The notes beneath the pieces were generated by a model, which saw nothing but the letters and a program-made list of their open reading frames with translations, ran no database searches and was not told the origin of the DNA. A DNA stretch of 64,000 bases from Escherichia coli. Lineage in GTDB: Bacteria; Pseudomonadota; Gammaproteobacteria; Enterobacterales; Enterobacteriaceae. The DNA lies in the NCBI GenBank assembly GCA_902500055.1, contig GCA_902500055.1_4131.1; one strand, written 5' to 3'. The translations under genes were made by a program, and so were the position numbers. Positions 7,892 through 64,000 of this stretch are shown here, one piece after another; position 1 is the stretch's first letter; the number at the start of each line of letters is the position of its first letter.

Positions 7892-9502
7892 TTATTGTTG
7901 ACGTACTGTTTCCCAGTTACCATTTATTTGCATTTGAACATAGCGATAACTAATTCGTTCTAAGTGAGTGCCTGAACTACCATTAACAGAAATCCATACG
8001 CCATCCATAAATGCACCTTCTGGTGTATATGTCCATGAAGAATCAGGTATTTTACGTGTTTCAATACGTGCACTCAAACGAATACTTTGTACGTTATTAG
8101 TACTAATTTGCAAAGTAACGTTGCCACTAGCATCAGCAGCAGTACCGTTAATTGAACGAACAATATTTTTACCACCAACAGTAGCTGAGTTGTTAGAAAC
8201 AGTTAATGATGGAGCAGCTAAAGTACCAGAAGAGTTTACAGTAACTTCTGCTCCACCGGAACGCAATCTCAATGTATTATTTGAAGAGTTATGATACACT
8301 GCCGCACGCTCACCACCGCTTGCGTTACGGAAATATAGAACTAATGATGTATCATTTGACTTAATTGACGCACTGTTTGCAATAGTCAATGAACCAGTCA
8401 TTGTATCACCAGTTTTTAGTACATAACGAGTGTTTGCAACTTTTTCACTCAATGCAACGTTAGATTCAGCAATGTTATATAGATATGCAACGTTAAAGTG
8501 TTCCACATCAATGTTACTAATACCATGATAGTGTGGTTGGTTTCCACCAAGTGTGTTAGTGTTTCCACTAAATGAGTGAATGTGGTCTGGTGCTTCGTTA
8601 ATGTTATTGATTACAGTTGGTATACCGTTATCATTACTTGAAGTTATCGCATTTAGACCACTACGGTCCATACCTTTTAGTGCTTGACTATGACCATGAC
8701 GACCAGCAGCCCCTGTGGTCCCACTAAAACTAAATGAGTGTGATGGTAATTGGGCAACACTTAATACTGTGCCGCTAATATTACCGCTACTACCAATAAC
8801 ACTATCAGTTTTAGTTACACCAGATGTAGATATACCTTTTAAGTACGCTTTTTGGTTAAGGTTTGGTACTTGTTTAGTAATTGTACCATTTTCCCCCTCC
8901 CATTGCCACCACATACCATCAGCAAAACACCAACCGTCAGACGTTTTCCACGGAGCACCTTGTGAACCGTTTCTCCCACTTTGTCCATTCGATTGTCCTG
9001 ACATTTGTTCACGTATACTAGCAACAGATTGACCAGAAGTCAATGAATATTGTGTAATAGCACCAGGTTTAAGTGAAGTGTAAAGACCAGTTGGACCAGA
9101 ACCACCACTAGAAGCAGTAGGGAATACAATGTTTAAGGTTGTTCCACTAATACTTGCACTAGGAACAGTACTACTACTGTATGTTACACTTTCTACTTTT
9201 AAATTTAATTTTCGGTTTACTTCATCTAATGAAATTCTAATTGGTTCCAAAATAGTATCAGTATCATATACTGCAACCCAACTTGTACCGTTATGATACT
9301 TCAAAACTAATTCGCTTCGATCAAAAACCATTGCACCTTGTTCACCAGTAGGTAAAGTTTGTACTGGTATAATAACTGATGACGAATTAAAACGAATAGG
9401 TCTTGGGTTAGTTGGTGTACCACCAAGCACTATTAGTTCTAAAGATCCATTAGCACCAGTACTGGTCATTGTATCCAATGGGTTATTAAAACTTATGCTC
9501 AT
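7892..9502 (-). CDS. Tail fibre protein with His-x-His motifs (gp12/gp37-like receptor-binding fibre)
   Basis: 536 aa, Ser/Thr/Gly/Asn-rich fibrous composition. Contains GRHGHS, PDHIHSF and PHYHG (HxH motifs typical of T4-type fibre tips). Followed by a Tfa-like chaperone gene. Confidence 0.75.
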   Translation of the reverse strand: MSISFNNPLDTMTSTGANGSLELIVLGGTPTNPRPIRFNSSSVIIPVQTLPTGEQGAMVFDRSELVLKYHNGTSWVAVYDTDTILEPIRISLDEVNRKLNLKVESVTYSSSTVPSASISGTTLNIVFPTASSGGSGPTGLYTSLKPGAITQYSLTSGQSVASIREQMSGQSNGQSGRNGSQGAPWKTSDGWCFADGMWWQWEGENGTITKQVPNLNQKAYLKGISTSGVTKTDSVIGSSGNISGTVLSVAQLPSHSFSFSGTTGAAGRHGHSQALKGMDRSGLNAITSSNDNGIPTVINNINEAPDHIHSFSGNTNTLGGNQPHYHGISNIDVEHFNVAYLYNIAESNVALSEKVANTRYVLKTGDTMTGSLTIANSASIKSNDTSLVLYFRNASGGERAAVYHNSSNNTLRLRSGGAEVTVNSSGTLAAPSLTVSNNSATVGGKNIVRSINGTAADASGNVTLQISTNNVQSIRLSARIETRKIPDSSWTYTPEGAFMDGVWISVNGSSGTHLERISYRYVQMQINGNWETVRQQ

Positions 9503-9542
9503 GTATAAATCCCTTTATGATTAATATATACTATATTTATTC

Positions 9543-9869
9543 CTATAGCAAGTCGTTATCCATATCATCCCACACAGAATCAATGATGTTTGCTGCTATC
9601 TTTTTAGACATTTTAAACCACTCCGTGTTTGGTTGTCTAGTTGCATTCATTTGTTTAAGCCTTTTATGTATCTCTTTTTCAGCTAAACGTGCGTCTTCAA
9701 AGTGAACTTCATGATAAACTTCAAAATCACGAAACGGGGTAGCTGTCTGATACGTTCTCAAACGCTCTGTCATTTCAGATTTAGAAGTGAAACCAATCTT
9801 AACATAGTCAGGCCATGCAGAGTTTATTATAACATAACATATCTGTGACATAGATTCAATCTCCATCAT
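9543..9869 (-). CDS. Stand-alone T5orf172 / GIY-YIG-like domain protein (homing-endonuclease-related)
   Basis: 108 aa; ICYVIINSAWPDYVKIGFTSK...ERLRTYQT matches the T5orf172-type pattern (hydrophobic strand, KIG.T, R..RL). Confidence 0.55.
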   Translation of the reverse strand: MMEIESMSQICYVIINSAWPDYVKIGFTSKSEMTERLRTYQTATPFRDFEVYHEVHFEDARLAEKEIHKRLKQMNATRQPNTEWFKMSKKIAANIIDSVWDDMDNDLL

Positions 9870-9890
9870 TAATATGGAGATATTTATCTA

Positions 9891-10250
9891 TCAATTAATA
9901 GTGAATTTTAAACCAATATCAATTAAACGTTGAAAAGGATTATGTGGCTGAAATTCCGAGGGTTCTTGTGCAATGTTTAGCACAGGAGCATCAGAATGCA
10001 GCAGCGACATACGTTCTCTATAATGATCGATGTATTCTTCATACAACATATCTTCAGTATGTGTATTAAGTATATCTTCTATGAAAGAATCTAAACTATA
10101 ATCTAATCTATCATCATTATAATACAATGTTTCAGTGGCTTCATCGTATCCAACTAACGTACCATAAGGAACATTTATTTCTATATTTGAGTACTGGCTC
10201 TTTAAGTACTCTTCTCTTTTAAATTTGTATACAGTTAACATCCGTGTCAA
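9891..10250 (-). CDS. Hypothetical protein (119 aa)
   Basis: ORF only; acidic, no motif recognised. Confidence 0.5.
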   Translation of the reverse strand: MTRMLTVYKFKREEYLKSQYSNIEINVPYGTLVGYDEATETLYYNDDRLDYSLDSFIEDILNTHTEDMLYEEYIDHYRERMSLLHSDAPVLNIAQEPSEFQPHNPFQRLIDIGLKFTIN

Positions 10251-10264
10251 CTCCTTTAGATTGT

Positions 10265-11419
10265 TTACTTAAAGGTATTTACAATTTCCAGTACAGATTT
10301 TAGATACTTTTCATCAAACGTTTCAGTAAATCCTGACGGCAACTCTTCAGTACTTACTACTCCACTTTCAATGTACTGCTTGATAAACTTTTCCAGTAAG
10401 AGGGGTTTATTACCATCTTCGAAGAAACGTTCTACTAGTACTTCATGGACGAATTCAGAATCACGACTCTGTTCGTTCACTCTACGTTTCATATCACCAG
10501 TGATTCCATATTTGTAAACGGTTTTATCTTTATTAGTTAGTTTCTGTACATAAAAATATCCAGGCTTGGAAGTCTGATAACCATACTTACCGCATTTTGG
10601 ACAACCACGACCTGTCAAATGTGCTTTAGGTTGCTGATGAAAAATATTTTTACAATTGTTGCATTTTATCTCGACCATTTTTTCACTATGCTCATACATA
10701 ACAGATGAGTAATCATAATTATTGTTATGAACTTTTACAGCTTCTGCAATAAATTGCTCGGTTGTTCTCCCACCTTTACCTGAACATATACCACATCCTG
10801 ACTTCCCAAGTATCAATGTTTTTGGATCAACTTCCCAATCATGATTTCCTTCATTGCAATGCACTGTGACTTTTGTTGTTCTGTTAATATAGTTGGTTTT
10901 TTGGAAACTAAATTTATCACCATAATTACGTTTAACAATTTTTATAAATTCATTATTCGTATGCACTACATTAATATTACAAACGTTACATCCAGCACCA
11001 GTTAATAACTTATTTGGTGTTATGTGAAAATAACCATTATGTTTAGTGCAGAATATTGTAACTGGAGTTTTTGCATTAACATAAACCAATTTATCAAATT
11101 TAAATTTTTCAGTCCCGAATTTCTTTTCAACTTTTAAAATGAAATCATCATTATTGGAACGCTGGGACATGTTACTATAACAGTTAGAGCAAGTACATGA
11201 GATATGACGAATTGCAGACTTTGTATTTTCAATACCACATTTGTTACATTTCAAGGTAGTTTTGCTAGATTTAAAAATCATCGAATTAAAATCAAACTCA
11301 CCATACATTCCATATTTTTCATTCATTTTCTTTTTGAAATTTTCAATTAACATTTTCAATTTACTCAACTTGGTTTCGATTTGATAATTATATATAATTA
11401 AAAATATTCTGTCAAGCAT
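10265..11419 (-). CDS. Homing-endonuclease-like protein: four zinc-ribbon repeats plus C-terminal T5orf172/GIY-YIG-like domain
   Basis: Repeated units ending in paired Cys (CNKC, GCNVC, GCGIC, GCPKC). C-terminus GYFYVQKL...YKYGITGDMKRRVNEQ. Start ambiguous: 11419 chosen because the track start at 11560 would overlap the capsid gene; no RBS seen. Confidence 0.55.
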   Translation of the reverse strand: MLDRIFLIIYNYQIETKLSKLKMLIENFKKKMNEKYGMYGEFDFNSMIFKSSKTTLKCNKCGIENTKSAIRHISCTCSNCYSNMSQRSNNDDFILKVEKKFGTEKFKFDKLVYVNAKTPVTIFCTKHNGYFHITPNKLLTGAGCNVCNINVVHTNNEFIKIVKRNYGDKFSFQKTNYINRTTKVTVHCNEGNHDWEVDPKTLILGKSGCGICSGKGGRTTEQFIAEAVKVHNNNYDYSSVMYEHSEKMVEIKCNNCKNIFHQQPKAHLTGRGCPKCGKYGYQTSKPGYFYVQKLTNKDKTVYKYGITGDMKRRVNEQSRDSEFVHEVLVERFFEDGNKPLLLEKFIKQYIESGVVSTEELPSGFTETFDEKYLKSVLEIVNTFK

Positions 11420-15820: not shown

Positions 15821-17560
15821 TTAAAAAGAATTGCCTAAATTATTAGGGTCAAAACCACCACTTCCACTCTGTTGCTCTTGATATTCGGCATCAGCACTTT
15901 CCAAATTACCTTCTCCATCAATACCAAGATCCATTCCAGGATCATTTGGAGCATCAATACCAACAGACTGCAATCCTGCGGAATCTTCTTCACCACCAGA
16001 AGGTTGGGAACCATCTTGTGGATTCTCTTGTAACCACATTTGTTCATTCTTAACAATATCAGCTTTAGAAAAGCCCATTTTTTCAAGAATTGTTTGTTTC
16101 GCCATATAAGGCAAGTCATTAAGAGGAAGATATGTATTAATTAGTTTAGCATCTAGTTCAGCTTTACGATAAGAAGCTAAGTTAATAGGTGGATTCATAA
16201 TAACTTCAAAAGATGAAGTACTAATGTTATATCCATTTTTAACCATAAATCTTTTGAATTCAGCATCAAAATGTTTTGCAACTAAACGTTGATAACGCAT
16301 ACATTGATTATTGAATCGCAATTCACTTGCCATAGCTTGTGTAGCACCATCACCAAATAATGAAACACCACCATCATCTGGACCTTGTGGTAGATATGAA
16401 GCTGGTATTTGAAGACCACGAATCAATTTATTATTGAAATAACGTAAGTCATCAATTTGTCCTAAGTTATCACCGCCTGGTAATGTTTGAACATCTGAAC
16501 CACGACCTTCAGAAGTTTGTGGGAAAAAGTAGTCTTCTAAAATGCTTAATGGATTATACGCTGCATCCATTAGTGAAGTACTTCCACCTTTGTTTGAAGG
16601 TATTCTACGCTGGTGGATTTCATTTTTAAATCTTTCAACATATGCCATTGCTTGGTGAGCTTGCATATCACCGACATCGATTTTAAATACGCGACGTTCC
16701 GGTGCACGTTGAACACGATAGATAATAATACTATCTTCCAGAAGTTCTTTTTGTTTATAGACTTTAAATACGTCCTCAAGTATACTAGTACCAAAGGGCC
16801 ATACTCCATCTTGTCCTGTATTTAGTGTCAGGTGAATAACGTGTTCTGCACCTACTGGGATAACATCTAGTTGACCGTTAGTACTGAATGGATCAGCAGT
16901 ATTTCCTTGACTTGTAAAACCAGATGCACCACCCGCAGCTACTGAACCACCACCACCCATTGTTGTCGGAATAGCTCCTGGATAAGCGGTTTTATCAAAT
17001 CCTACTTGAAGGTTACTAAAAACTTTATCTTTCAAATTTAATGATACGTCACGTATATAATAAATTACTGGTGTTTTACCAGTGGCTTCGTTAACAAATA
17101 CTTGCTCAACATTTTTGGGACTTACCCAATACCAATCGAATGTTTCTGGATCTCGAATGAAAAATTGATCACCATATTTCAGAAGACCACGCACAATTTC
17201 ATACATTCGTGTTTTAAAATCATTTTGTTCAGTCCATGCATCTAAACGATCTTCAATAGTCGTTACTTCAGTATCACCAATATCATCTTTATATTTGATT
17301 TTATATGGTAAACCAAAATCTTCAGTACTTTGGGTACAAAAGTCAGCAATTATATTCAATGCAGTTCTAATTTCAGGATCTTGGTCCATTTGCTCATACT
17401 GACTATAACGCTCAGTACGGTTTGCCAATCCATTATATACAACAGGAAGATAGGAAGCGAAATTTGTTTTCGTTCCTGTTGATTTATTGCTATTACTGGA
17501 CTGATTTGGGATGGTCGATAGTTTAGACCTTCCCACTGTCATATGTCGTTTCCAACTCAT
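15821..17560 (-). CDS. Portal vertex protein (gp20-like), by size and position
   Basis: 579 aa, immediately upstream of the core, protease, scaffold and capsid genes on the same strand; Gly/acidic C-terminal tail. No motif verified. Confidence 0.55.
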   Translation of the reverse strand: MSWKRHMTVGRSKLSTIPNQSSNSNKSTGTKTNFASYLPVVYNGLANRTERYSQYEQMDQDPEIRTALNIIADFCTQSTEDFGLPYKIKYKDDIGDTEVTTIEDRLDAWTEQNDFKTRMYEIVRGLLKYGDQFFIRDPETFDWYWVSPKNVEQVFVNEATGKTPVIYYIRDVSLNLKDKVFSNLQVGFDKTAYPGAIPTTMGGGGSVAAGGASGFTSQGNTADPFSTNGQLDVIPVGAEHVIHLTLNTGQDGVWPFGTSILEDVFKVYKQKELLEDSIIIYRVQRAPERRVFKIDVGDMQAHQAMAYVERFKNEIHQRRIPSNKGGSTSLMDAAYNPLSILEDYFFPQTSEGRGSDVQTLPGGDNLGQIDDLRYFNNKLIRGLQIPASYLPQGPDDGGVSLFGDGATQAMASELRFNNQCMRYQRLVAKHFDAEFKRFMVKNGYNISTSSFEVIMNPPINLASYRKAELDAKLINTYLPLNDLPYMAKQTILEKMGFSKADIVKNEQMWLQENPQDGSQPSGGEEDSAGLQSVGIDAPNDPGMDLGIDGEGNLESADAEYQEQQSGSGGFDPNNLGNSF

Positions 17561-17571
17561 TATTTTCGTCC

Positions 17572-19776
17572 TTAACTGTTTCTCTCACCTTGAGTGTTTT
17601 CAGAGATAGTTCTTAGATAGTTATTTGTCTGTTGCACAGCAGATAGAGATTGCTCATTAACATCAGCAAGTTTTTTAAGTAACTCTTTCATGTCTTCTGA
17701 TATTGTGGCATTATTATTAGCATTTGCCATACTACTACCACTATTTATCATCGCTTTCATGGCCTCATAATCGTCCGGTTCAGCTTGAATTGGTGGTTCA
17801 TTTGGACCCCATGCTGATTTATCAAAAGTTTTTGGAGTTATGGTAACATATGGTGCAACATGTTCAGATTTTTCGATTCTCGCAGTTGCTCTTGGCTTAT
17901 TTTCAAGACCACTACTAATAAGTTTTTCAGCAACTGATTCATCAAGGGGTTTTGGTTGTTTAAAGTTTCTACTTGAATTCCATTTTAAAAAACCATCAAA
18001 TGAACTAGAAATATAATCACCAAATGAATTCATTTTTTCTTCAAAATAATTATTAACTTTTTCTGCACCATCGGTAACAGAATTGTTTTCTACTTTTACT
18101 TTGTCGTCTGATCCACCAAACCAACCTTTAACAGAATCCCAAAGTTTACCAGGAAGATCCATTAGGTTATTCATAAAGCTATCAAATGCTTCTGAAACTT
18201 TATTATATCCACTACCAAAAATTTCAGTACCTAACCCTTCTAACCACTGCTCAAACTCACCACCAATCCTATCCAAATACGCAACTGCATCTTTCGCAAT
18301 AGGAACCAAACCAAAACCATCAAGTGCTAACTCTCCGATGAATTCCCATGCACCATCAGTACGGTCTGCAATATCAGTAAGGTAATCCGCAATAGAATTT
18401 TGTGTATCTGCATACATTTTATTAAATGGTTCAGTAAATTCTTTACTAATCCATCTATTGAATCTATCAGTGAATTGTGTTAGTTTATCTGCTGGTTGAC
18501 TCTTAGGATCATTAATCGCAGCTTCCATATCAAGTAGTTGTTGGTTGAAGGTTGCTGCCGTAGTGTTTCCTAATTGTATTTGATTTAATAAATCTTGCTT
18601 TATTAGTTCTTTGTTCTTTTTAACAAATTCCAATTGTTGACGGCGAATTTCTTGTGAATCAGTAACACCACTACGTACCAAGTTCTCACCTAAATCAGCA
18701 AATTGGTTCAGTACTGGAGTCAATAAATCATCTGGTACTCCACCAATAGTTAAACGATGTGAAATTAAACGTAGAAAATCTGCACCAGCATCACCCATAC
18801 TGGCAGCAGCTTCGTTAAATGCTTTTGATGTTGCAACTGCTGCTTTACTAGATAATCCAGAATAGTTTTGTAATGCGATTTGCATTGAACGTGTGTCTAA
18901 TGATTTATCTAAGTTTTGTGTTTTATTTAATAGTGCATCAACTGACTCACCCATACTTTTACTGAACTTAGTCATGCTCATGATAAACTGTTCAGTACTT
19001 TTTGCTTGATCCATACTACGTAACATTTCTCTTCCACCAAATTGCTTTTGGAATTTAATATTACGTGCAGTTAAATCAGTTAATGTTTTTTGAGAAACAC
19101 CATATAAACCTAATTGATTTTGTGCTTGTTGCACAGTACCCAATAATTTACCAAATGTAGAAACACCATCACCATATGCACCATCTAATTGTGCAACAAC
19201 GGCACTATGAGTTTGTAATGCTTCACCAAATGCATCAATACTCATCATTGATGCACCAGCACCTTTTAATATGGAGCCGTAACCTTCAGATAGAGCGACA
19301 CCAGCACTGTTTATTCTATTATAAACTTCAAGCTGTGCATTTAACACATTATAAACTGCTAAACCAGCGTCAGCAACCAATTTGAATGCAGATGCTGCTG
19401 CACCAACTGGACCTGGGATCATTGCTAATGAACCAGCAAATGAAGATGCACTCATTCCTAGTGAGTTTACAACATTGCTAACGTTTGCAGACGTACTCAT
19501 CATAGTTTTGCCGACATTCGATACTTCAGATGATAATGATTTGAATATTTTTCCAAATTCTTTACCATCATCAGCTTTGTTATTTGTTCGAGAGCCACGG
19601 TTTCCAGTACTTGATGAATTACTTCCATTACGTTTTCCACTTTTAGAACCGGATTTCTTTCTATCATTTTTTATATTTTCAGCCAATAACTCACGTATAG
19701 CACTCAAACTATCGTTGTTATCTTTAGTTTGATTAACCAACTGCTGGAGTAGGTAATCACTTGTATTTCCAGCCAT
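17572..19776 (-). CDS. Large hypothetical virion protein (734 aa; possibly tape-measure-like or internal protein)
   Basis: Ala/Gln/Ser/Gly-rich, predicted helical, basic Ser/Gly/Arg-rich N-terminal region; directly upstream of the portal gene. Function is a guess. Confidence 0.5.
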   Translation of the reverse strand: MAGNTSDYLLQQLVNQTKDNNDSLSAIRELLAENIKNDRKKSGSKSGKRNGSNSSSTGNRGSRTNNKADDGKEFGKIFKSLSSEVSNVGKTMMSTSANVSNVVNSLGMSASSFAGSLAMIPGPVGAAASAFKLVADAGLAVYNVLNAQLEVYNRINSAGVALSEGYGSILKGAGASMMSIDAFGEALQTHSAVVAQLDGAYGDGVSTFGKLLGTVQQAQNQLGLYGVSQKTLTDLTARNIKFQKQFGGREMLRSMDQAKSTEQFIMSMTKFSKSMGESVDALLNKTQNLDKSLDTRSMQIALQNYSGLSSKAAVATSKAFNEAAASMGDAGADFLRLISHRLTIGGVPDDLLTPVLNQFADLGENLVRSGVTDSQEIRRQQLEFVKKNKELIKQDLLNQIQLGNTTAATFNQQLLDMEAAINDPKSQPADKLTQFTDRFNRWISKEFTEPFNKMYADTQNSIADYLTDIADRTDGAWEFIGELALDGFGLVPIAKDAVAYLDRIGGEFEQWLEGLGTEIFGSGYNKVSEAFDSFMNNLMDLPGKLWDSVKGWFGGSDDKVKVENNSVTDGAEKVNNYFEEKMNSFGDYISSSFDGFLKWNSSRNFKQPKPLDESVAEKLISSGLENKPRATARIEKSEHVAPYVTITPKTFDKSAWGPNEPPIQAEPDDYEAMKAMINSGSSMANANNNATISEDMKELLKKLADVNEQSLSAVQQTNNYLRTISENTQGERNS

Positions 19777-56260: not shown

Positions 56261-56370
56261 TGTTTAAGCCCTTTTAGTAGTGAACTTTCATTTATTTATT
56301 AATGATAACGAAATGTATTTTGTACTGATAAATATTGGTATATGACATTAACTCATACAAGGGAAATATT

Positions 56371-57498
56371 ATGACAATTTCATTTAACAATGGGTCCAGT
56401 GGTTCATGTAATAACTCCGGCATCAAAAGTCTAGTTATTAATGGTGCTGGGCATTTAATTGTAACCTATGCAGATAACACAATTCAAGATTTAGGTCTTG
56501 TTGTAGGACAGAATGGCGAGAATGGTAAAAACTTTTATCCTAATGAGATTGGTTTTGAAATTCCTTCCGAACAATTTAAAGTTGGTGAACCACTTGGGTG
56601 GTGCTACTTAAGCTTGGCTAACAACACCAGTACTCTATACTTTAAATCAAACGATGCACAAGATCCGACAAGTACATGGATTAGTGTTGAGTTTGGTAAA
56701 GGTGATACTGGTGAAGCGGGTAAGCCGTTCCACATTGATAGTGCTGGGACTACTTTCCCAACAACTGGTCTTTTTAATAACTATACATTTTATAATACTC
56801 AAGATGGTAAGCTTTATTTCTATCAAAGTGTAACTGCCACTTGGAGTGATGGTATCCCTTTCCGTGGTGAACAAGGTCCGCGTGGTCGTTTCCATATTGA
56901 TAGTAGTGGTGATCAATTTCCAAGTATTGAAAATCTTCCAGTTGATTATTGTTTTTATAACAACACTGATGGAAAACTATATTATGTTGATGAAGTAACT
57001 ACAACTACCCCTCCTTCAAAAGAGTGGAGTGATGGTATTCTATTCCGTGGTAAAGAAGGTCAGCAAGGTATTCAAGGTATACAAGGCGAACCAGGTGCAC
57101 CAGGTAAAGATACAATTTCTATTAGAAATACAATAGATAGCTCATGGACTAACGCACTATTAGTTATTGGTACGTGTCCTGCTGGATATGTAGTTTCTAA
57201 TATTGATGTAAACGTTATACAACCTTATTCTCTTCCTGTAACTGATATGTTTGTACGTTTTGGTGGTGAAGCACAAGAAGATATTGGTGGGACTGTAATT
57301 GCACCAACTTCCTACTTTGATATCAATCGTCAGATGCGTTTTATTGTTAATGAAACTAATCATGCAGCATCCGATGTTGATGAAATTATTTCATGTGTAT
57401 TCAACGATTCTGTTAACAACAGTCCTTATGGAAAAATGGAAATTATTTGTACTCTTTCATGGCAAGCTCCTATCCAACCGATTCAAGATAATATTTAA
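56371..57498 (+). CDS. Collagen-like (G-X-Y) repeat fibre protein
   Basis: Short Gly-X-Y runs (GENGKNFYP; GDTGEAGKP; GEQGPRGRF; GKEGQQGIQGIQGEPGAPGKD) and an internal duplication (FYNTQDGKLYFYQ...WSDGIPFRGEQG / FYNNTDGKLYYVD...WSDGILFRGKEG). Start set at the MTISFNN Met (AAGGGAAA RBS). Confidence 0.6.
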   Translation: MTISFNNGSSGSCNNSGIKSLVINGAGHLIVTYADNTIQDLGLVVGQNGENGKNFYPNEIGFEIPSEQFKVGEPLGWCYLSLANNTSTLYFKSNDAQDPTSTWISVEFGKGDTGEAGKPFHIDSAGTTFPTTGLFNNYTFYNTQDGKLYFYQSVTATWSDGIPFRGEQGPRGRFHIDSSGDQFPSIENLPVDYCFYNNTDGKLYYVDEVTTTTPPSKEWSDGILFRGKEGQQGIQGIQGEPGAPGKDTISIRNTIDSSWTNALLVIGTCPAGYVVSNIDVNVIQPYSLPVTDMFVRFGGEAQEDIGGTVIAPTSYFDINRQMRFIVNETNHAASDVDEIISCVFNDSVNNSPYGKMEIICTLSWQAPIQPIQDNI

Positions 57499-57512: not shown

Positions 57513-59654
57513 ATGGCAGTATTTTCTAATTTTGAAGGAACTATGCAGCCCAAATTCATATTGGGGAAAAAAGGTGCTTCAATAAATTTTATCAATGATT
57601 CAGTTTCTATAAAAGATTATCTAGGAGAACAGTTCCTACCACTGAAGGTAGGAACTTCATCTGATCCTAATTCAGCAGTTAACGTAAAATATCTTGAAGA
57701 TAACCCTAATGCATTATTTGGTGTTGTACCACCTACCGATGATATAGGAAAGAACAATAATACGTATTTTCAAATTGATGAAGATGGTATTGTTGATATT
57801 TTTGCAAAAAGCAATGGTACATGGGTAAAATCATTATACATTAATAAAAAAGTTCTATCCAGTAAAAATGGTGGAGATTTCATCGGACTTATTACTGGAG
57901 GTACAGTTCAACAGGCACAGTTTTATATAACACCAGAAGAATTTGGTGCTAAAGGTGATGGCGAAACTGATGACACTGCTGCTGTAAATTTATGTGCTGC
58001 TTATGCTAAAGAAAATAAAATCCAAATTCAGGCTGGTGGTAATTACCGTATCAAAACTGCAATATATCTGGAAGATGTAACTTGGTTTGGGGGAACTATT
58101 ACTGGTAACGGTGGTACTATGGTATCCGTTATTAATTCCCAAATACAATTTGCAACACTTACTGGATGTTATTTAAAATTCTTCGGCGGCGATGGTAAGT
58201 TTTATTTTAATAAATTTATAAACATCACAAGTACTGCTGCATTTTTAATGCAAGGTATGACACAACCAGGTACAATAGATTTTTGCTTTAATGAAATGAC
58301 CCAATGTAAGTATGGCGTTCTTCAACAAGGTACTGGTGAGAAAATGAAGGTTGGTAGATATTCATATAACCACATACATGATATATATGGTGATGCAATT
58401 GAACTAAACGTAATTAACTCACACTATCCTGATGGTTTTGTTATTGAAGGGAACATAATTGAAAACGTTGATGGTTCTAACGCTCCAATCCCACTTTCAA
58501 ACTGGGGTATTGGTATTGGAGTTGCTGGTTCTGGACCTTATGGTTTAGATGCACCAGACACACAATATGTAAGAAACTTTGTTATTAAAAATAACAGACT
58601 ATATAATGTTAGACAATGTATCCACGTTGAATTAGGCATGGACTTTAAAATACTTAATAATGAAGTTTATCCATCATCTTTAGTTTCTGTCGGTACTGGA
58701 TTAACCACTGCTGGTGTTATAACTTATGGTTCTAAAGAATTCATTATTGATGGGTTGACTGGTCATTTGCTTAATGATCCTTCTATCACAAATAGAATGG
58801 TTTCAATAAACTGGGGTGTAACTTCTGGTCGTTTTGCTGGACCACCTAGAAACTTTAAAATTTCTAATCTCTATATTCCAGAGTCTTCTATACTTGTTTA
58901 TACTTCCGGTTCTGATAATTGGTTAAATAATACAGAATTGAGCAATATCACCTGTTCTAAAATTCTTTGGCGTGGTTTGCCATCATCATCTAAATTTAGT
59001 GATATTAGAACTAAAGAATTAGATGTAATTGGTCAACACCTCTCTACAGAAGGCGAAGGTGGTGGTATATATACTCGCTCTAAATATACTTATACTAATT
59101 GGACTAACTGTGTTGTTCAAGATGATTGTAATGTTTCAAAATATAGTTTTTCTAAAATGTATGTAGACAGAATAGACCAATCATCTAATAACTTTAAAGT
59201 TACAACTGCAATCGATGGTACAGGTCACCGTGGCCCAGTACTGATACCTGTAGTTGAACAATATTATATTCCATATGATACTTTTCCAGGGGGACGCTAT
59301 TTCTCTGAAGGCACGATTATTCATAAACAATCGGGTGGAAAATATATTGTAACTGTTGGTGGTTCTTTTTTCGGAAAATATGACACAATTAGACAAACGG
59401 TAGCAGGACAAACATACATAGAAGCATTGGGTGTGTCATGGGGTGAAAACCAATATGCAAAAGCTGCTGGTACTGAGATTATTATATCTGGTGCTGGTGA
59501 AAATGGTGGTGATTTGAGAACGTATATAACTCGTGCAGTGTATGTTGTAAACAACGTATATAGAATTGATATTGCAGATCCTATCATAACAGCAACTGCC
59601 GCTGGTGCAGCATTAAAAGCCGCCCAACCCGTAACTTACATAACCCTACCATAA
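57513..59654 (+). CDS. Tailspike with pectate-lyase-like beta-helix (putative polysaccharide depolymerase)
   Basis: 713 aa. N-terminal MAVFSNFEGTMQPKFILGKKGA module shared with the next gene. FGAKGDGETDDTAAVNLCAAYA is the signature of pectate-lyase-fold depolymerases. GGGAGG RBS. Confidence 0.7.
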   Translation: MAVFSNFEGTMQPKFILGKKGASINFINDSVSIKDYLGEQFLPLKVGTSSDPNSAVNVKYLEDNPNALFGVVPPTDDIGKNNNTYFQIDEDGIVDIFAKSNGTWVKSLYINKKVLSSKNGGDFIGLITGGTVQQAQFYITPEEFGAKGDGETDDTAAVNLCAAYAKENKIQIQAGGNYRIKTAIYLEDVTWFGGTITGNGGTMVSVINSQIQFATLTGCYLKFFGGDGKFYFNKFINITSTAAFLMQGMTQPGTIDFCFNEMTQCKYGVLQQGTGEKMKVGRYSYNHIHDIYGDAIELNVINSHYPDGFVIEGNIIENVDGSNAPIPLSNWGIGIGVAGSGPYGLDAPDTQYVRNFVIKNNRLYNVRQCIHVELGMDFKILNNEVYPSSLVSVGTGLTTAGVITYGSKEFIIDGLTGHLLNDPSITNRMVSINWGVTSGRFAGPPRNFKISNLYIPESSILVYTSGSDNWLNNTELSNITCSKILWRGLPSSSKFSDIRTKELDVIGQHLSTEGEGGGIYTRSKYTYTNWTNCVVQDDCNVSKYSFSKMYVDRIDQSSNNFKVTTAIDGTGHRGPVLIPVVEQYYIPYDTFPGGRYFSEGTIIHKQSGGKYIVTVGGSFFGKYDTIRQTVAGQTYIEALGVSWGENQYAKAAGTEIIISGAGENGGDLRTYITRAVYVVNNVYRIDIADPIITATAAGAALKAAQPVTYITLP

Positions 59655-59670
59655 AGGAGATTATATTAAA

Positions 59671-60567
59671 ATGGCAGTTTTTTCTAATTTAGAAGGAACC
59701 ATGAAGAAGTCCTTCATTCTTGGGAAGAATGGTGCACAGATTACCACAAATGGTAGTGTTGTGCAAATTCAAAACTACTCAGGAACACAACTTCTTCCAA
59801 TTTCAGCAGGTGAACCAACTGCAAACACACACTTGGTTACATTGGGATATTTAAACGCACACAGTGGTGGTGGTAGTTCTGGTATCTTACGTGGAACAAC
59901 AGCACCATCCGATTCTATTGGTCTAGATGGTGACGTTTACTTTTTGGTTGATAGTACTAATGTTCTTCAAATTTATATTAAAGATCTTGGTATTTGGAAA
60001 CCATTTAAAGGTAGCTCACCGGGAACTGATAGCTCATATGTAACTACTGAAATAGTTCCTGTTTCTGCATTTACATTAGTACCAGATACTACTGATCATT
60101 ATACTTACACACTACCAGAATCAGTTCATGGTAGAGGTTCTGATATTATGATTCAACTACAAGGTGACCCAGGTAATGTTGCATTGGAATCAGTATTCCA
60201 AACCACAGTAACAGTTAGTGGTATTGGGGATATAACAATTGATGTGATTGGTCAAATCACAGATTATGCAAGTGTTAAAGTAAACATTATAGGAGCAACA
60301 ACAATGACAGTACCTTATAGTAAATTAGTAAACCAAGCCGATTGGGTTTCTAGTGCTGGTGATTTCACAATCACTATTCCAGCATCCGAACACAATCAAA
60401 CCCCAGATAATTTGTATATTTCAATTTATGCAAATAAAACACCTGGAAGTGTTGCGTCATCTCCATTCGAGTTGGTAGTGACTGATACACAAATTAGTAG
60501 TACTGGTGATGTAATCTTCACTTCTGATATTTCTTTCAGTGGTAAGATTGTCATCTCCGGTAAGTAA
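59671..60567 (+). CDS. Tail fibre/spike protein sharing the N-terminal anchor module with the preceding tailspike
   Basis: 298 aa; N-terminal 20 residues nearly identical to the 57513 gene (MAVFSNLEGTMKKSFILGKNGA), different distal domain. AAGGAG RBS. Confidence 0.6.
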   Translation: MAVFSNLEGTMKKSFILGKNGAQITTNGSVVQIQNYSGTQLLPISAGEPTANTHLVTLGYLNAHSGGGSSGILRGTTAPSDSIGLDGDVYFLVDSTNVLQIYIKDLGIWKPFKGSSPGTDSSYVTTEIVPVSAFTLVPDTTDHYTYTLPESVHGRGSDIMIQLQGDPGNVALESVFQTTVTVSGIGDITIDVIGQITDYASVKVNIIGATTMTVPYSKLVNQADWVSSAGDFTITIPASEHNQTPDNLYISIYANKTPGSVASSPFELVVTDTQISSTGDVIFTSDISFSGKIVISGK

Positions 60568-60575
60568 CAAATTAA

Positions 60576-60608
60576 CCAGGCTTGTTCTAAATAAGTCTGG
60601 TTTTTTAT
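60576..60608 (+). terminator. Rho-independent terminator after the fibre cassette
   Basis: CCAGGCTT-loop-AAGTCTGG stem (one G-U pair) followed by TTTTTT. Confidence 0.6.
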
Positions 60609-60704
60609 TATATTTGCTTTTGTCAAATAATGTATTAATTGTTGGATAACAGCATAATAAAACTAAATATATACATATTAACAAGGTTATAATGGAGGGT
60701 ATAA

Positions 60705-63700
60705 ATGTACTCAATAAAAACTGACTTAGATATTACTGGTGCTGGTACGGTTGGTAAGGATCTTTTAGTCAAAGGAAATGCTGTTTTCAATAATAACCTA
60801 ACTGTAAATGGTACTGTAACTTTTGCAAATGCAACTTTTACTGCCATTGAATCATCAACTGCCAATATTACATCTACTTTAGATGTAGGTGGCAAAGCAA
60901 CACTTTCTGGTGGTCTTGGTGTTGAGGGTAATACTACAATCGGTAGTGCAGTGGTCGGGTCTGATACAGCAACAATTAATTCAAACGCTACCTTTAACGG
61001 TACTGTATCAGTTGGTTCTGATTTTACACAAACTGCTGGTACAACCACTCTACAAGCAACTAAAGTTAAAAACTTAGAAGTTGCTGAAACAACAGCATTT
61101 AAAGGTAATATTACTGCTGATGTTGGTACTACTGCTGCATTTGATAAAATTACTGCTAATACCGCAGAAATTACTAATGTAAGTACAACCGATATTAGTA
61201 GTACTGGTACTGCTACATTTAAAGATGTGACAATTAGTGGTACACTTGGTGGTGAGTTTAATCTATCTGACTTAAATGCAGTAACATTGAACGTTACTGG
61301 TGCATCTAACCAACAAGGTGCAGTAACTTTCGGTGCTAACGTAACTGGTATTAACAGTACTGCTACTTTTAAAGACATTCGTATTGGTTCTAACTCTGAA
61401 TCTCAAACCTTCAGATTAAGCTTCCCTTACACTGCTCCTGGTAAACGCCCAACTGTTATTCTACAAAACGAAATTCAGTCCGAGTTAATGTCACCTGCAA
61501 ACTTAACAGTTTTGACATCTGCTTCTTTTGGTAATGCGTCATTATCTTCTTATGGTATTACTGGTAATGGTCTAAACAAATTAGATTATCTAACAGTTTC
61601 TGGTAACAATACACAATCACCAGACACCCCACTATTAGAAGTTCAAAAAGGAAAAACCAAAGTTGCCGATTTTGAAGTTACAGGAACCGCAACTATACCA
61701 AATATTGAAAGTACTGGAACTGCTAATTTTAATAATATTAATATTTCTGGTGTTCTTGGTGGAACATTCCAACTAGATGATATTAATGCAGTAACATTGA
61801 ACGTTACTGGGGCCACTTCGTTAGTTGGTGGTGTTACTCTTGGTTCTAATATTACTGGTTATAATAGTACTGCTACCTTTAAAGCTATTAGCTTAGGTCA
61901 AAATAGTCAAGATGCAGCAGTGAAACTAGGTTTTGGATATACTGCACCCGGTCAACGCCCAACAGTTATTCTACCTAATGAAGTTCAATCAGAAGTAGTT
62001 TCTCCTTCTACATTGAACGTTCTTAAAACTGCAACTTTTGGTAATGCGTCATTATCGTCTTATGGCATTACTGGTAATGGCCTAAACAAATTAGATTATC
62101 TAACAGTTTCTGGTAACGAAACACAAGCTCCAGATACACCACTATTAGAAGTTCAAAAAGGAAAAACCAAAGTTGCTGACTTTGAAGTCACCGGAACTGC
62201 AACTATACCAAATATTGAAAGTACTGGAACTGCTAATTTTAATAATATTAATATTTCTGGTGTTCTTGGTGGAACATTCCAATTAGACGATATTAATGCA
62301 GCATCTTTGAACGTTACTGGTGCAACTTCATTAGTTGGTGGTGTTACTCTTGGTTCTAATATTACTGGTTATAACAGTACTGCATCATTTAAAGCTATCA
62401 GCTTAGGCCAAAGTAGTCAAGATTCTGCTGTAAAACTTGGATTTGGATATACTGCACCAAGTCAACGTCCAACCGTGATTTTACCTAACGAAGTTCAATC
62501 AGAATTAGTTTCTCCTTCAACACTGAACGTTCTAAAAACGGCAACTTTTGGTAATGCTGCACTTTCTACGTATGGTATTACTGGTAATGGCCTAAACAAA
62601 TTAGATTACCTAACCATTACAGGTAACGCAACACAAGACCCTAGTACACCATTCCTACAAGTTGGTGGTAAAGCAATTCTTAATGATGTTGAATTTACTG
62701 GAACAGTAACTGGGTTAACTGTTGATGTAAGTGGTCAGGATCTAACACCAAACTCAGTTGTTGCTGCGACAAATATTAAAGGTGCAACCCTTGAAAGTAC
62801 TGGTAACACTACTGTGGGTGCTAAACTAACTGTTACTGGTGATATTGCTGGTACAACTGCAACTCTTTCTGGTGCATTATCTGCTGGTTCAATAAGTTCT
62901 GGTGTTATTACTGGTACAACTTCAGTTTCAGCACCAACAATTAGTGCATCTACTGAAGTAACTGCTCCTACTATCACTGCTAGTGGGACTTTAAGTGGTC
63001 AAACTATTAACGGAACTAATATTAGTGCAACAACTCTTACTGCACCAACTATTAGTGGTAATACAAACTTTACAGAAAATGTTGATATTACTGGCAACCT
63101 AACCGTTACTGGCACAGTAACGCCAGGTACGATTGATTTGAGCACAACTGATGTAAGTGCGAAATCTATTACTACTACCGCTGGTGCAAATATTGGTGGT
63201 GATCTTGTGGTTCAAGGTTCTTTTGATTTATCATCAGCAGACATTAGCGTTAAATCACTAACTGCTTCTGGTATTGTTAAAAGTAATGATCTTGTTAATG
63301 CTAACGTACTTCCAGTACTTAATAGTACTACTGCAACAATTAATACTGTTAATGCAACTGAACTTGCGGTAACAGGTCCATCCAATCTAGCATCTGTTCG
63401 TACAAGTGCTGATGTTGTAGTCGGAACAACTTTAAATGTAAGTGGTGAAACAACAACTGCATCTCTAGTTACTCCATCTATTTCCAATGCAACTGGTGTT
63501 ACAATTGGTAATAATACTTCTATCACTGGTGACTTAACTGTTAGTGGTGCTGTGATTCCTGGATCTATCGACCTAGCATCAACTGATGTTAACGCTAAAT
63601 CAATCACAACAACTGCTGGTGCAACAATTGGTGGAAACTTAACCGTTAACGGTACAGTAGACCTAACTGCTGCTGATGTAACAGTTAAATCTCTAACCAG

Positions 63701-64000
63701 TACTGGTGCAATCATTAGTAATGAATCAACTATTAGTAGTGTTCTACCTAAACTACAAAGTACTGATGCGACAATTGCAACTCTAGGTTCTACTACTGCG
63801 AATATTACTAATTTGAATGTAACTGGTGCAACTTCTGTTGCTGATGTAACATCTTCTGGTAAAGTTACAGCAGTTTCTATTGAAGTTCCAACCATTGGTA
63901 ATACTGCGGGTGTATCTATTGCTAATAATACATCTATTACTGGTGACCTAACAGTTTCTGGTACAGTGACACCAGGTGCTATTGATTTAACAACAACTGA
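60705..64000 (+). CDS. Very long repetitive fibrous protein (3' partial, runs off the window)
   Basis: Translated by hand: the frame starting at the ATG at 60705 (GGAGGG RBS) stays open to nt 64000, so at least 1,098 codons. Thr/Gly/Ala/Asn/Val-rich with two families of long in-frame tandem repeats. Absent from the ORF track, presumably because no stop lies in the window. Confidence 0.75.
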   Translation, partial: MYSIKTDLDITGAGTVGKDLLVKGNAVFNNNLTVNGTVTFANATFTAIESSTANITSTLDVGGKATLSGGLGVEGNTTIGSAVVGSDTATINSNATFNGTVSVGSDFTQTAGTTTLQATKVKNLEVAETTAFKGNITADVGTTAAFDKITANTAEITNVSTTDISSTGTATFKDVTISGTLGGEFNLSDLNAVTLNVTGASNQQGAVTFGANVTGINSTATFKDIRIGSNSESQTFRLSFPYTAPGKRPTVILQNEIQSELMSPANLTVLTSASFGNASLSSYGITGNGLNKLDYLTVSGNNTQSPDTPLLEVQKGKTKVADFEVTGTATIPNIESTGTANFNNINISGVLGGTFQLDDINAVTLNVTGATSLVGGVTLGSNITGYNSTATFKAISLGQNSQDAAVKLGFGYTAPGQRPTVILPNEVQSEVVSPSTLNVLKTATFGNASLSSYGITGNGLNKLDYLTVSGNETQAPDTPLLEVQKGKTKVADFEVTGTATIPNIESTGTANFNNINISGVLGGTFQLDDINAASLNVTGATSLVGGVTLGSNITGYNSTASFKAISLGQSSQDSAVKLGFGYTAPSQRPTVILPNEVQSELVSPSTLNVLKTATFGNAALSTYGITGNGLNKLDYLTITGNATQDPSTPFLQVGGKAILNDVEFTGTVTGLTVDVSGQDLTPNSVVAATNIKGATLESTGNTTVGAKLTVTGDIAGTTATLSGALSAGSISSGVITGTTSVSAPTISASTEVTAPTITASGTLSGQTINGTNISATTLTAPTISGNTNFTENVDITGNLTVTGTVTPGTIDLSTTDVSAKSITTTAGANIGGDLVVQGSFDLSSADISVKSLTASGIVKSNDLVNANVLPVLNSTTATINTVNATELAVTGPSNLASVRTSADVVVGTTLNVSGETTTASLVTPSISNATGVTIGNNTSITGDLTVSGAVIPGSIDLASTDVNAKSITTTAGATIGGNLTVNGTVDLTAADVTVKSLTSTGAIISNESTISSVLPKLQSTDATIATLGSTTANITNLNVTGATSVADVTSSGKVTAVSIEVPTIGNTAGVSIANNTSITGDLTVSGTVTPGAIDLTTT
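61201..62730 (+). repeat. Three tandem in-frame repeats of about 510 bp (170 codons)
   Basis: Anchor strings recur at exactly 510-nt spacing (61201, 61711, 62221). Copies 2 and 3 are near-identical over most of their length; copy 1 is diverged in its 5' half. Confidence 0.85.
63085..64000 (+). repeat. Second tandem repeat family (period about 420-440 bp), at least two copies plus a partial one
   Basis: Recurring ITG(D/N)LTV(S/T)G.V.PG.IDL..TDV.AKSITTTAGA.IGG... units at roughly 63090, 63530 and 63950; more diverged than family 1; continues past the window end. Confidence 0.6.

Follow-up and report, generated by a model that had tools for sequence, protein, structure and literature searches.

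The 64-kb window (the whole stretch of DNA that was analysed) contains two consecutive genes whose products begin with almost the same residues and continue into unrelated distal parts, which raises the question of whether one attachment module is shared by two different phage proteins and what these proteins do for the phage. The window has a DNA identity of 99.5% with vB_Eco_slurp01 and of 98% with PBECO4/121Q, and its proteins are 99.3–100% identical to the PBECO4 and 121Q counterparts; judged by these identities, the source phage is an Asteriusvirus jumbo coliphage from the 121Q/PBECO4 group. Taken as one whole, the region is best explained as the conserved gp574-gp573-gp572 tail-appendage unit of Asteriusvirus, a reading to which we assign a probability of about 0.78. 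The cassette is not new, as dozens of published genomes have it annotated. The features of the region are as follows:

56371..57498, + strand: gp574 orthologue, upstream 'tail protein', first gene of the tight three-gene unit (phrog_13565, E 8.6e-225)
57513..59654, + strand: colanidase tailspike gene, 713 aa, 121Q gp573 / PBECO4 colanic-acid-degrading protein (phrog_6117, PDB 6E0V)
57513..57830, + strand: putative N-terminal attachment module of the colanidase, aa 1–106 (homology to the gp572 N-terminus; AF2 model)
57831..57932, + strand: junction/neck, aa 107–140, where the anchor homology stops and the homology to colanidase bodies with other anchors starts
57933..59651, + strand: colanidase body, aa ~141–713, predicted right-handed beta-helix of the WcaM/phi92 gp150 type (6E0V homology)
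59671..60567, + strand: conserved 298-aa virion fibre/baseplate accessory protein (121Q gp572; GAP32_221; CBB_227; phrog_10468, E 5.5e-100)
59671..60003, + strand: putative N-terminal attachment module of the 298-aa protein, aa 1–111, paralogous to that of the colanidase
60007..60288, + strand: predicted beta-sandwich domain d1 of the 298-aa protein, aa 113–206
60289..60564, + strand: predicted beta-sandwich domain d2 of the 298-aa protein, aa 207–298 (pLDDT 84–96; phmmer matches)
60574..60602, + strand: terminator-like hairpin closing the gp574-gp573-gp572 unit, 13-bp stem followed by a T run
60705..64000, + strand: start of the long tail-fibre gene, 121Q gp571 orthologue, which continues past the window end; the variable gene of the region

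The gp573 and gp572 ORFs were both confirmed at these positions, with the Shine-Dalgarno-like sequences GGGAGG and AGGAG, respectively, located 8–10 nt upstream of their ATG codons. The spacers within the unit are 14 and 16 nt long, giving an operon-like layout, and a scan for tandem repeats and promoters returned nothing notable apart from the strong terminator-like hairpin that follows gp572. The mechanically called gp574 ORF begins with a TTG at 56335, with the annotated ATG located at 56371. Its product is 100% identical to the PBECO4 counterpart and contains a short collagen-like stretch, GKEGQQGIQGIQGEPGAPGKD (nt 57049–57111), for which the Pfam Collagen match is weak. A gp574 orthologue is found directly upstream of the gene carrying the N-terminal module in 121Q, vB_Ec-M-J, GAP32, CBB, K64-1 and RaK2, and gp574 may be considered a candidate docking partner of the module-bearing proteins.

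Colanic acid is the mucoid exopolysaccharide made by E. coli under envelope stress. The work of Kim et al. 2015 is said to concern enzyme activity, the purified PBECO4 enzyme reportedly being active in trans, and as far as found does not address the shared anchor. The 713-aa protein of the window shares 711 out of 713 residues (99.7%) with the PBECO4 "colanic acid degrading protein" and with 121Q gp573, matches phrog_6117 'colanic acid degradation' (E 4.5e-264) and aligns with phi92 gp150 (PDB 6E0V; E 1.8e-235, 57% identity over 617 aa) from residue 96 to residue 712 against chain residues 11–623, that is, over the whole catalytic body. There is also a partial match to WcaM (E 5e-26). The FGAKGDGETDDTAAVN motif, on which the original prediction of a depolymerase was founded, occupies aa 144–159 (nt 57942–57989) within the colanidase body; the Pfam PF12708 (pectate-lyase-like) match covering it is sub-threshold, with 23.9 bits against a cut-off of 27, and homologues of the body carry PF27800 / PF13229. 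Together with the homology to the solved 6E0V chain, these matches point indirectly to a right-handed parallel beta-helix. The identity to the PBECO4 enzyme and the 6E0V match support the assignment of the protein as a tailspike of the beta-helix type that depolymerises polysaccharide, so the prediction was correct but, since both the PBECO4 enzyme and phi92 gp150 are matched, concerned an activity already known. According to PMC13450770, which cites Xu et al. 2025, the linkage in colanic acid that phi92 gp150 cleaves is the beta-1,4 Glc-Fuc bond, and PMC10059673 links PBECO4 gp547 to the enzyme work of Kim et al. 2015. Within gp573, homology begins at aa 96–97 in comparison with phi92-like spikes and at aa 112–138 in comparison with spikes having other anchors.

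When the 713-aa protein was compared with the 298-aa protein using BLASTP, residues 1 to ~110 aligned with an E value of 9e-20. The local alignment of the two N-termini contains 42 identical residues out of 104 (40%), including 15 within the first 20. With these 20 residues removed, the module still scores 118 compared to 25.7 ± 4.7 for shuffled sequences (n = 1000, z = 19), while the distal parts of gp573 and gp572 align at chance level (z = 0.3). Nearly identical first 20 residues followed by complete divergence had been described for this pair; the likeness at the start and the unrelatedness of the distal parts hold, but the homology extends to residue ~105 and remains highly significant without the very beginning, well beyond a few residues. 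On these alignments, the shared module is real and approximately 105 residues long.

In the colanidase module, aa 1–~65 form a putative docking core with the pattern MAVFSNFEGTM...LGK.GA...P....AV..YL, followed at aa ~66–106 by a beta unit of four strands; the AF2 model of the module (pLDDT 84.9) has strands at 14–34, a helix at 58–63 and strands at 67–106. In the AF2 models of the two proteins, both built as monomers, the secondary-structure elements follow in the same order. Residues M1, F4, S5, N6, G9, T10, G18, K19 and G21 are invariant in both paralogues across genera. A profile search of the 64-kb window with the module found the gp573 and gp572 ORFs only, with no extra copies in gp574, the long fibre or the rest of the window, and TBLASTN revealed exactly two module loci per Asteriusvirus genome, with no third copy in any of them at E ≤ 1e-3, and a single locus in other Rak2-like jumbo phages. 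At the DNA level, gp573 and gp572 are highly identical only across the first ~36 nt and about 50% identical further on. The colanidase modules form a clade of their own, being at about equal distance (34–40% identity) from all gp572 orthologues. A recent tandem duplication or gene conversion is ruled out by the ~36-nt limit together with this separate clade. The two modules, 40% identical and belonging to separate clades, may bind different sites.

The 298-aa protein has 73 homologues, 72 of which cover 100% of the query. Phages infecting Cronobacter, Yersinia, Erwinia, Pectobacterium and Salmonella encode it over its full length with 41–57% identity, and all Rak2-like jumbo phages have this virion protein conserved from end to end. 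It keeps the phrog_10468 domain order of N-terminal module, d1 and d2. Domain d2 is similar to the C-terminus (aa 701–792) of the 792-aa colanidase P0079 (BLASTP E 5e-13) and is also found at the C-terminus of ~200-aa family members. The beta-sandwich domains are possibly glycan-binding. In 121Q, vB_Ec-M-J, GAP32 and CBB the gp572-type gene lies between the gp574-type tail protein gene and the long fibre gene, with Asteriusvirus being the exception to the direct gp574-gp572 adjacency, as the colanidase gene is intercalated there.

One adaptor on different bodies, as the original prediction had it, is borne out by comparison, since many distinct distal domains follow either the whole module or its first ~70 residues. 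The module stands alone as a 115-aa protein in K64-1/RaK2, which stops just past GIWKPL, and is joined to sandwich domains in ~200-aa (module and d2) and ~290-aa (module, d1 and d2) forms. Module, colanidase and d2 are combined in P0079, and the colanidase also occurs without a C-terminal sandwich. In metagenomes the first ~70 residues precede unrelated beta-helix and BNR fibres, including a 780-aa spike with a beta-helix and an S74 chaperone, a 705-aa beta-helix spike and BNR fibres of 1.2–1.4 kaa, and one 120-kb contig carries two such spikes. A conserved N-terminal anchor, with its invariant residues all within aa 1–21, is thus found on receptor-binding proteins (RBPs) with different bodies. 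The colanidase body, for its part, is located behind at least five other anchor types (PF26208, PF18668, PF12571, PF09008 and PF03906).

The module might instead be merely a trimerisation or folding nucleus of fibrous phage proteins, with attachment residing elsewhere and no common socket implied. The profile search divides it into positions 1–70 and 65–110, the latter being a common repeat of which collagen-like and other fibre proteins contain as many as 14 copies, and the only structural matches, all with low Z, are to the trimerisation domains of collagen XV/XVIII and to trimers of phage head fibres, which fits such a nucleus. The extreme N-terminus, however, is the most conserved part, lies outside the repeat and always starts at residue 1, and Alcyoneusviruses retain the 115-aa module-only protein in synteny, where there is nothing to fold. 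We therefore consider a mere nucleus unlikely and keep to an attachment module.

As for the virion, the gp572 orthologue CBB_227 was detected there by mass spectrometry with 5 unique peptides and 32% coverage (PMC5259590), and the gp574 orthologue gp253 of phAPEC6 with 65.6% coverage (PMC7247149). For the colanidase no proteomic detection in Asteriusvirus virions was found, the phAPEC6 table listing gp253 and gp256 but not gp254/gp255 (PMC7247149); the absence of the latter two is uninformative because the deposited record lacks both CDSs, which were maybe never searched. In the 121Q annotation 'structural protein' is noted for gp572 and gp574 and not for gp573. The missing detection, this annotation and the in-trans activity of the purified enzyme reported by Kim et al. 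2015 would all suit a soluble enzyme, freed at lysis and stripping the colanic acid of neighbouring cells, in which the N-terminal module is an evolutionary leftover. Yet the colanidase module is under clear purifying selection in all copies of the enzyme (60–86% identity among P0074–P0076, with the invariant motif kept), the gene lies within a tight structural operon, homologous bodies elsewhere all bear tailspike anchors, and phi92 gp150 is regarded as a tail fibre/spike candidate in PMC13450770. Such a soluble enzyme appears highly improbable, and the colanidase would rather be a spike built into the virion.

The locus had also been proposed to be the main host-range determinant and to follow a branched multi-spike architecture. 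Because the gp573 and gp572 genes are conserved across the genus (80–99.5% at the DNA level) and gp572 is kept in genera with other hosts, they seem not to be the chief determinant of host range; the variable, mosaic gene of the region is the downstream fibre, as is also indicated in PMC10059673. A true branched system of the CBA120, G7C, KP32 or RaK2 kind, broadening the host range, would require one protein to branch and the other to dock, with the pair as the main determinant. Related Alcyoneusviruses do have branched fibres assembled from nine proteins (PMC10253068), and in KP32-type phages it is a known principle that secondary RBPs dock by a conserved N-terminal peptide (PMC13352976). 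Against this, no T4gp10-like / XD or other branching domain was detected in gp573 or gp572, no docking partner was identified, and the two proteins carry the same kind of anchor and not an anchor and a socket. Considering also the conservation of both genes and the position of the mosaic gene, a branched host-range system is distinctly unlikely, and the conserved tail-appendage unit remains the preferred reading.

In that unit, gp573 would consist of the ~105-residue attachment module joined at approximately residue 107 to a WcaM/phi92-gp150-type beta-helix, the body presumably hydrolysing colanic acid so that the phage can reach the outer membrane. The gp572 protein would be an older, lineage-wide virion protein with a similar module followed by two small beta-sandwich domains. 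The first part of the module, aa 1–~65 with its nearly invariant first 21 residues, may serve as the docking core, and the second, the small beta unit of aa ~66–106 repeated in many collagen-like phage fibres, probably trimerises the chain. We infer that gp573 and gp572 are trimers which plug via the module into the baseplate or fibre network, using either one common socket or paralogous ones, with the co-transcribed gp574 'tail protein' as the first candidate socket. The order of events that we infer is that a horizontally mobile colanidase body was attached behind a copied gp572 scaffold or inserted into it, probably an ancient event compared with the divergence of the gp572 orthologues.

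A more far-reaching and tentative suggestion, with the odds clearly against it at present, is that the ~105-residue module may plug one conserved baseplate/fibre socket in all Rak2-like jumbo phages, the existing forms representing stepwise domain insertion. The series would run from the plug only (115 aa, Alcyoneusvirus) through plug with d2, plug with d1 and d2, and plug with colanidase and d2 to plug with colanidase, and the stand-alone 115-aa protein would be a cap keeping the socket filled after the loss of distal domains. If this were true, new depolymerases could be hung on jumbo phages by means of the first ~65 residues, which would act as a portable docking peptide.

The two-gene finding is real but ordinary, as the colanidase is already characterised and its neighbour is a small fibre protein that is conserved. 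The practical value is limited, the window being confirmed to carry the well-known 121Q/PBECO4-type colanidase, which lets such jumbo phages infect mucoid E. coli overproducing colanic acid. What is new, to a modest extent, is how the anchor is built, namely a ~105-residue module common to the neighbouring virion protein with a sharp junction at approximately residue 107, together with the range of natural variants, from the module alone up to module, enzyme and sandwich domain. If the docking site were mapped, the module would be the obvious part to use when other depolymerases are to be grafted onto jumbo phages, and the map would aid in reading the baseplate densities that are poorly resolved in phAPEC6 and 121Q.

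Among the known systems, the PBECO4 enzyme (ORF547; AGC35227.1) / 121Q gp573 has the same module and the same place between the gp574 and gp572 orthologues, and differs from the window protein by two amino acids and in nothing of substance. Phi92 gp150 (PDB 6E0V/6E0W; Pfam PF27800, WcaM-like) has a homologous body, corresponding to aa 96–712, and the same substrate according to PMC13450770, but phi92-type spikes start with ~188 residues (PF26208) that have no relationship to the module of the jumbo phages, and phi92 is a 148-kb Justusliebigvirus as opposed to the ~350-kb Asteriusvirus of the window. The 298-aa protein is a full-length member of phrog_10468 (GAP32_221, CBB_227, fHe-Yen9-04 g219) with 52–55% identity to these three proteins, 41% to the most distant homologue, and the same synteny, a family that has only the module in common with the colanidase. 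RaK2 gp061 / K64-1 gp067 (115 aa) are 60% identical to aa 1–115 of gp572 and occupy the same syntenic place after the gp574 orthologue; they represent the bare module, this locus lacks both the distal domains and the long fibre genes, and the Alcyoneusvirus depolymerases are encoded elsewhere, in gp526–534 (PMC10253068). The RBP2 proteins of KP32/K11/KP34, the tailspikes of CBA120, and G7C and K1-5/SP6 follow a like principle, in which a lineage-specific N-terminal anchor is combined with horizontally exchanged enzymatic bodies and several RBPs are present per virion. The anchors of the KP32/CBA120/G7C/SP6 type have no sequence or detectable fold relationship to the module of the window, and, unlike KP32/CBA120/G7C-type systems, the pair described here has no branching domain that could be found, and its two proteins carry paralogous copies of the same anchor.

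The 4.4-kb region considered here shows 99.5% identity to Escherichia phage vB_Eco_slurp01, 98% identity to PBECO4, 121Q, phAPEC6 and about 20 further Asteriusvirus jumbo coliphages, and 80–87% identity to a second clade including BF17, vB_Ec-M-J and others. The window proteins are 99.3–100% identical to those of PBECO4 and 121Q, and the gene names of the latter are used for the orthologues. Two consecutive genes with similar N-termini had been predicted originally, and both ORFs exist exactly as proposed within the following arrangement:

preceding gp573, + strand: gp574, "tail protein" in the 121Q annotation
57513-59654, + strand: gp573, 713 aa, "colanic acid-degrading protein" in the 121Q annotation
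59671-60567, + strand: gp572, 298 aa, "structural protein" in the 121Q annotation
60574-60602: terminator-like hairpin with a 13-bp stem, T-rich, closing the gp574-gp573-gp572 unit
60705-64000, + strand: long tail-fibre gene coming after gp572, orthologue of gp571 (1841 aa in 121Q), mosaic and running past the window end

The spacers inside the unit are 14 nt and 16 nt long, gp573 and gp572 are preceded by good Shine-Dalgarno sequences, and the fibre gene starts ~100 nt past the hairpin; gp574, gp573 and gp572 are likely to be co-expressed as late structural genes. The start of gp574 is ATG 56371 (MTISFNN...) in published annotations and the PHROG profile, the mechanically called ORF having a TTG start at 56335 and hence an extra stretch at 56335-56370.

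The first ~110 residues of the 713-aa and 298-aa proteins are aligned by BLASTP with an E-value of 9e-20, and the local alignment contains 42/104 identities, with 15/20 in the first 20 residues. When these 20 residues are removed, the score still exceeds that of shuffled controls by 19 standard deviations, so the shared element is a module of ~105 residues (hereafter N-module) and not a 20-residue leader, while the distal parts score at chance level. The near-identical start described originally therefore stands, and the divergence placed at residue 20 does not. The DNA of the two copies is nearly identical over the first ~36 nt only, which rules out a recent duplication and indicates old paralogues. 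A search of the 64-kb window with the module profile revealed no copies beyond these two ORFs; TBLASTN located the N-module at two places per Asteriusvirus genome and at one in every other Rak2-like jumbo phage.

In the structure model of the N-module, built on 33 sequences (pLDDT 84.9), three short strands at aa 14-34 are followed by one short helix at aa 58-63 and by a beta unit of four strands at aa 67-106, and the same order of elements is found in the N-terminal part of the 298-aa protein model. Invariant residues gather at the extreme N-terminus (M1, F4, S5, N6, G9, T10, G18, K19, G21). In a profile search against 1.84 billion representative proteins the N-module fell into two parts. Positions 1-~70 always form the start of the protein, from residue 1 on, and precede very different bodies: beta-helix spikes of 780 aa (with an S74 chaperone) and 705 aa, BNR-propeller fibres of 1.2-1.4 kaa and several short proteins. 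Positions ~65-110 (window 57708-57830 and 59866-60003) represent a repeat unit with the motif G..P....G..GD.Y.......I..I..K..G.W; hundreds of collagen-like and fibre proteins (411 at E <= 0.001) contain this unit, in as many as 14 copies, and its structure weakly resembles the trimerisation domains of collagens XV/XVIII. Because of this split, the N-module is read as a putative docking core followed by a probable trimerisation unit.

The bodies attached to the N-module vary in nature. GAP32 and CBB lack a colanidase at this locus, the order there being tail protein, ~287-aa protein and long fibre. The Alcyoneusvirus phages K64-1 (gp067, locus L003 9001-9348) and RaK2 (gp061, locus L005 4001-4348) possess, in the syntenic position behind the gp574 orthologue, a 115-aa protein which is the N-module alone, ending just after GIWKPL; their locus has neither the distal domains of the ~290-aa protein nor the long fibre genes. 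The usual variant carries the beta-sandwich domains d1 and d2 behind the module, ~200-aa proteins carry d2 only, and the Asteriusvirus variant carries the colanidase. The metagenomic 792-aa protein P0079 (locus L011 6320-8698) combines module, colanidase and d2, its C-terminal domain being homologous to gp572 aa 207-298 (E 5e-13), and looks like an intermediate form linking gp572 to the Asteriusvirus colanidase; its gene, on a Rak2-like contig, directly adjoins thymidylate synthase and is not placed after gp574.

A 120-kb metagenomic contig (L009) encodes two different beta-helix spikes, at 8001-10343 (the 780-aa protein) and 16571-18343 (the 705-aa protein), with the same ~65-residue anchor core. 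Two ~900-aa proteins encoded between these spikes have another N-terminus in common (MSKKI.G.L.V...). The arrangement looks like a second case of anchor pairing, in a phage unrelated to this one.

Conversely, the colanidase body is combined with no fewer than five further anchor types: PF26208 (phi92-like phages), PF18668, PF12571, PF09008 (P22-type) and PF03906 (T7-type). Homology of these proteins to gp573 begins at aa 96-138, so that the mosaic junction comes to lie near residue 107. The colanidase N-modules cluster in their own clade, about equally far from all gp572-type modules, which suggests that the fusion occurred once and long ago. The idea of a modular anchor is borne out, since the same module or core is carried by differing bodies and the colanidase body by differing anchors. 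Neither a branching domain in gp573/gp572 nor a docking partner for the N-module was identified, so the branched multi-spike architecture proposed originally is still hypothetical.

Residues 96-712 of gp573 match the phi92 gp150 structure (PDB 6E0V/6E0W; E 1.8e-235, 57% identity). The protein belongs to phrog_6117 "colanic acid degradation" (PHROGs, E 4.5e-264) and has a partial NCBIfam WcaM match, its homologues bear Pfam PF27800 (WcaM), and the FGAKGDGETDDTAAVN motif at aa 144-159 lies inside a sub-threshold pectate-lyase-like Pfam match. [quoted passage not shown] The latter protein is the gp573 orthologue with 99.7% identity. Purified ORF547 was reportedly shown by Kim et al. to degrade colanic acid and to restore T7 infection of mucoid mutants. 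Given the phi92 homology, the PHROG assignment and the PBECO4 orthology, the depolymerase reading is correct and already established. In phage vB_Ec-M-J (locus L002 13214-15356) the annotation splits the gene into two "colanidase tailspike" CDSs, and translation across their junction meets stops after ~residue 360, so the gene either contains a frameshift caused by a sequencing error or is a pseudogene.

The 298-aa protein belongs to phrog_10468 (E 5.5e-100) and has 73 database homologues, almost all full-length (41-85% identity), from phages of Cronobacter (GAP32_221), Yersinia, Erwinia, Pectobacterium and Salmonella. Its orthologue CBB_227 was found in virions of phage CBB by mass spectrometry (PMC5259590). 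As for the colanidase, no direct evidence of its presence in the Asteriusvirus particle was found, and gp254/gp255, which are the colanidase and the 298-aa protein of phAPEC6, do not appear in the proteome table of that phage. No CDS for either is present in the deposited phAPEC6 record (MK817115.1, locus L007 185866-189071), even though its DNA there matches the window at 98.5% identity, and an annotation artefact may be the reason why both are missing from the published virion proteome.

The region was also expected to be the main host-range determinant, which does not hold for the three-gene unit, as all 34 Asteriusvirus records that carry most of it retain 95-100% of its length. The variable gene is the long fibre, which reaches no more than 89.8% identity to that of vB_Eco_slurp01 and differs from it by indels, next to a cassette with 99.5% identity, has its best match in a different phage (CRJP21/JP4, 94.3%) and aligns with the BF17 clade over its first 44% alone (72% identity); the same pattern has been reported for BF17 fibres (PMC10059673). 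Such divergence beside a conserved cassette suggests that the long fibre is probably the specificity-determining gene of the region. The long antisense ORFs within it (60635-61378, 62735-62977 and 63212-63895, all on the - strand; 80-247 aa, V/A/T/L/P-rich) are most likely not genes but side effects of a fibre coding sequence that is repetitive and biased in composition.

[quoted passage not shown] Both genes are already known, one of them being experimentally characterised, and the modestly new content is confined to the description of the shared N-module and its natural variants.
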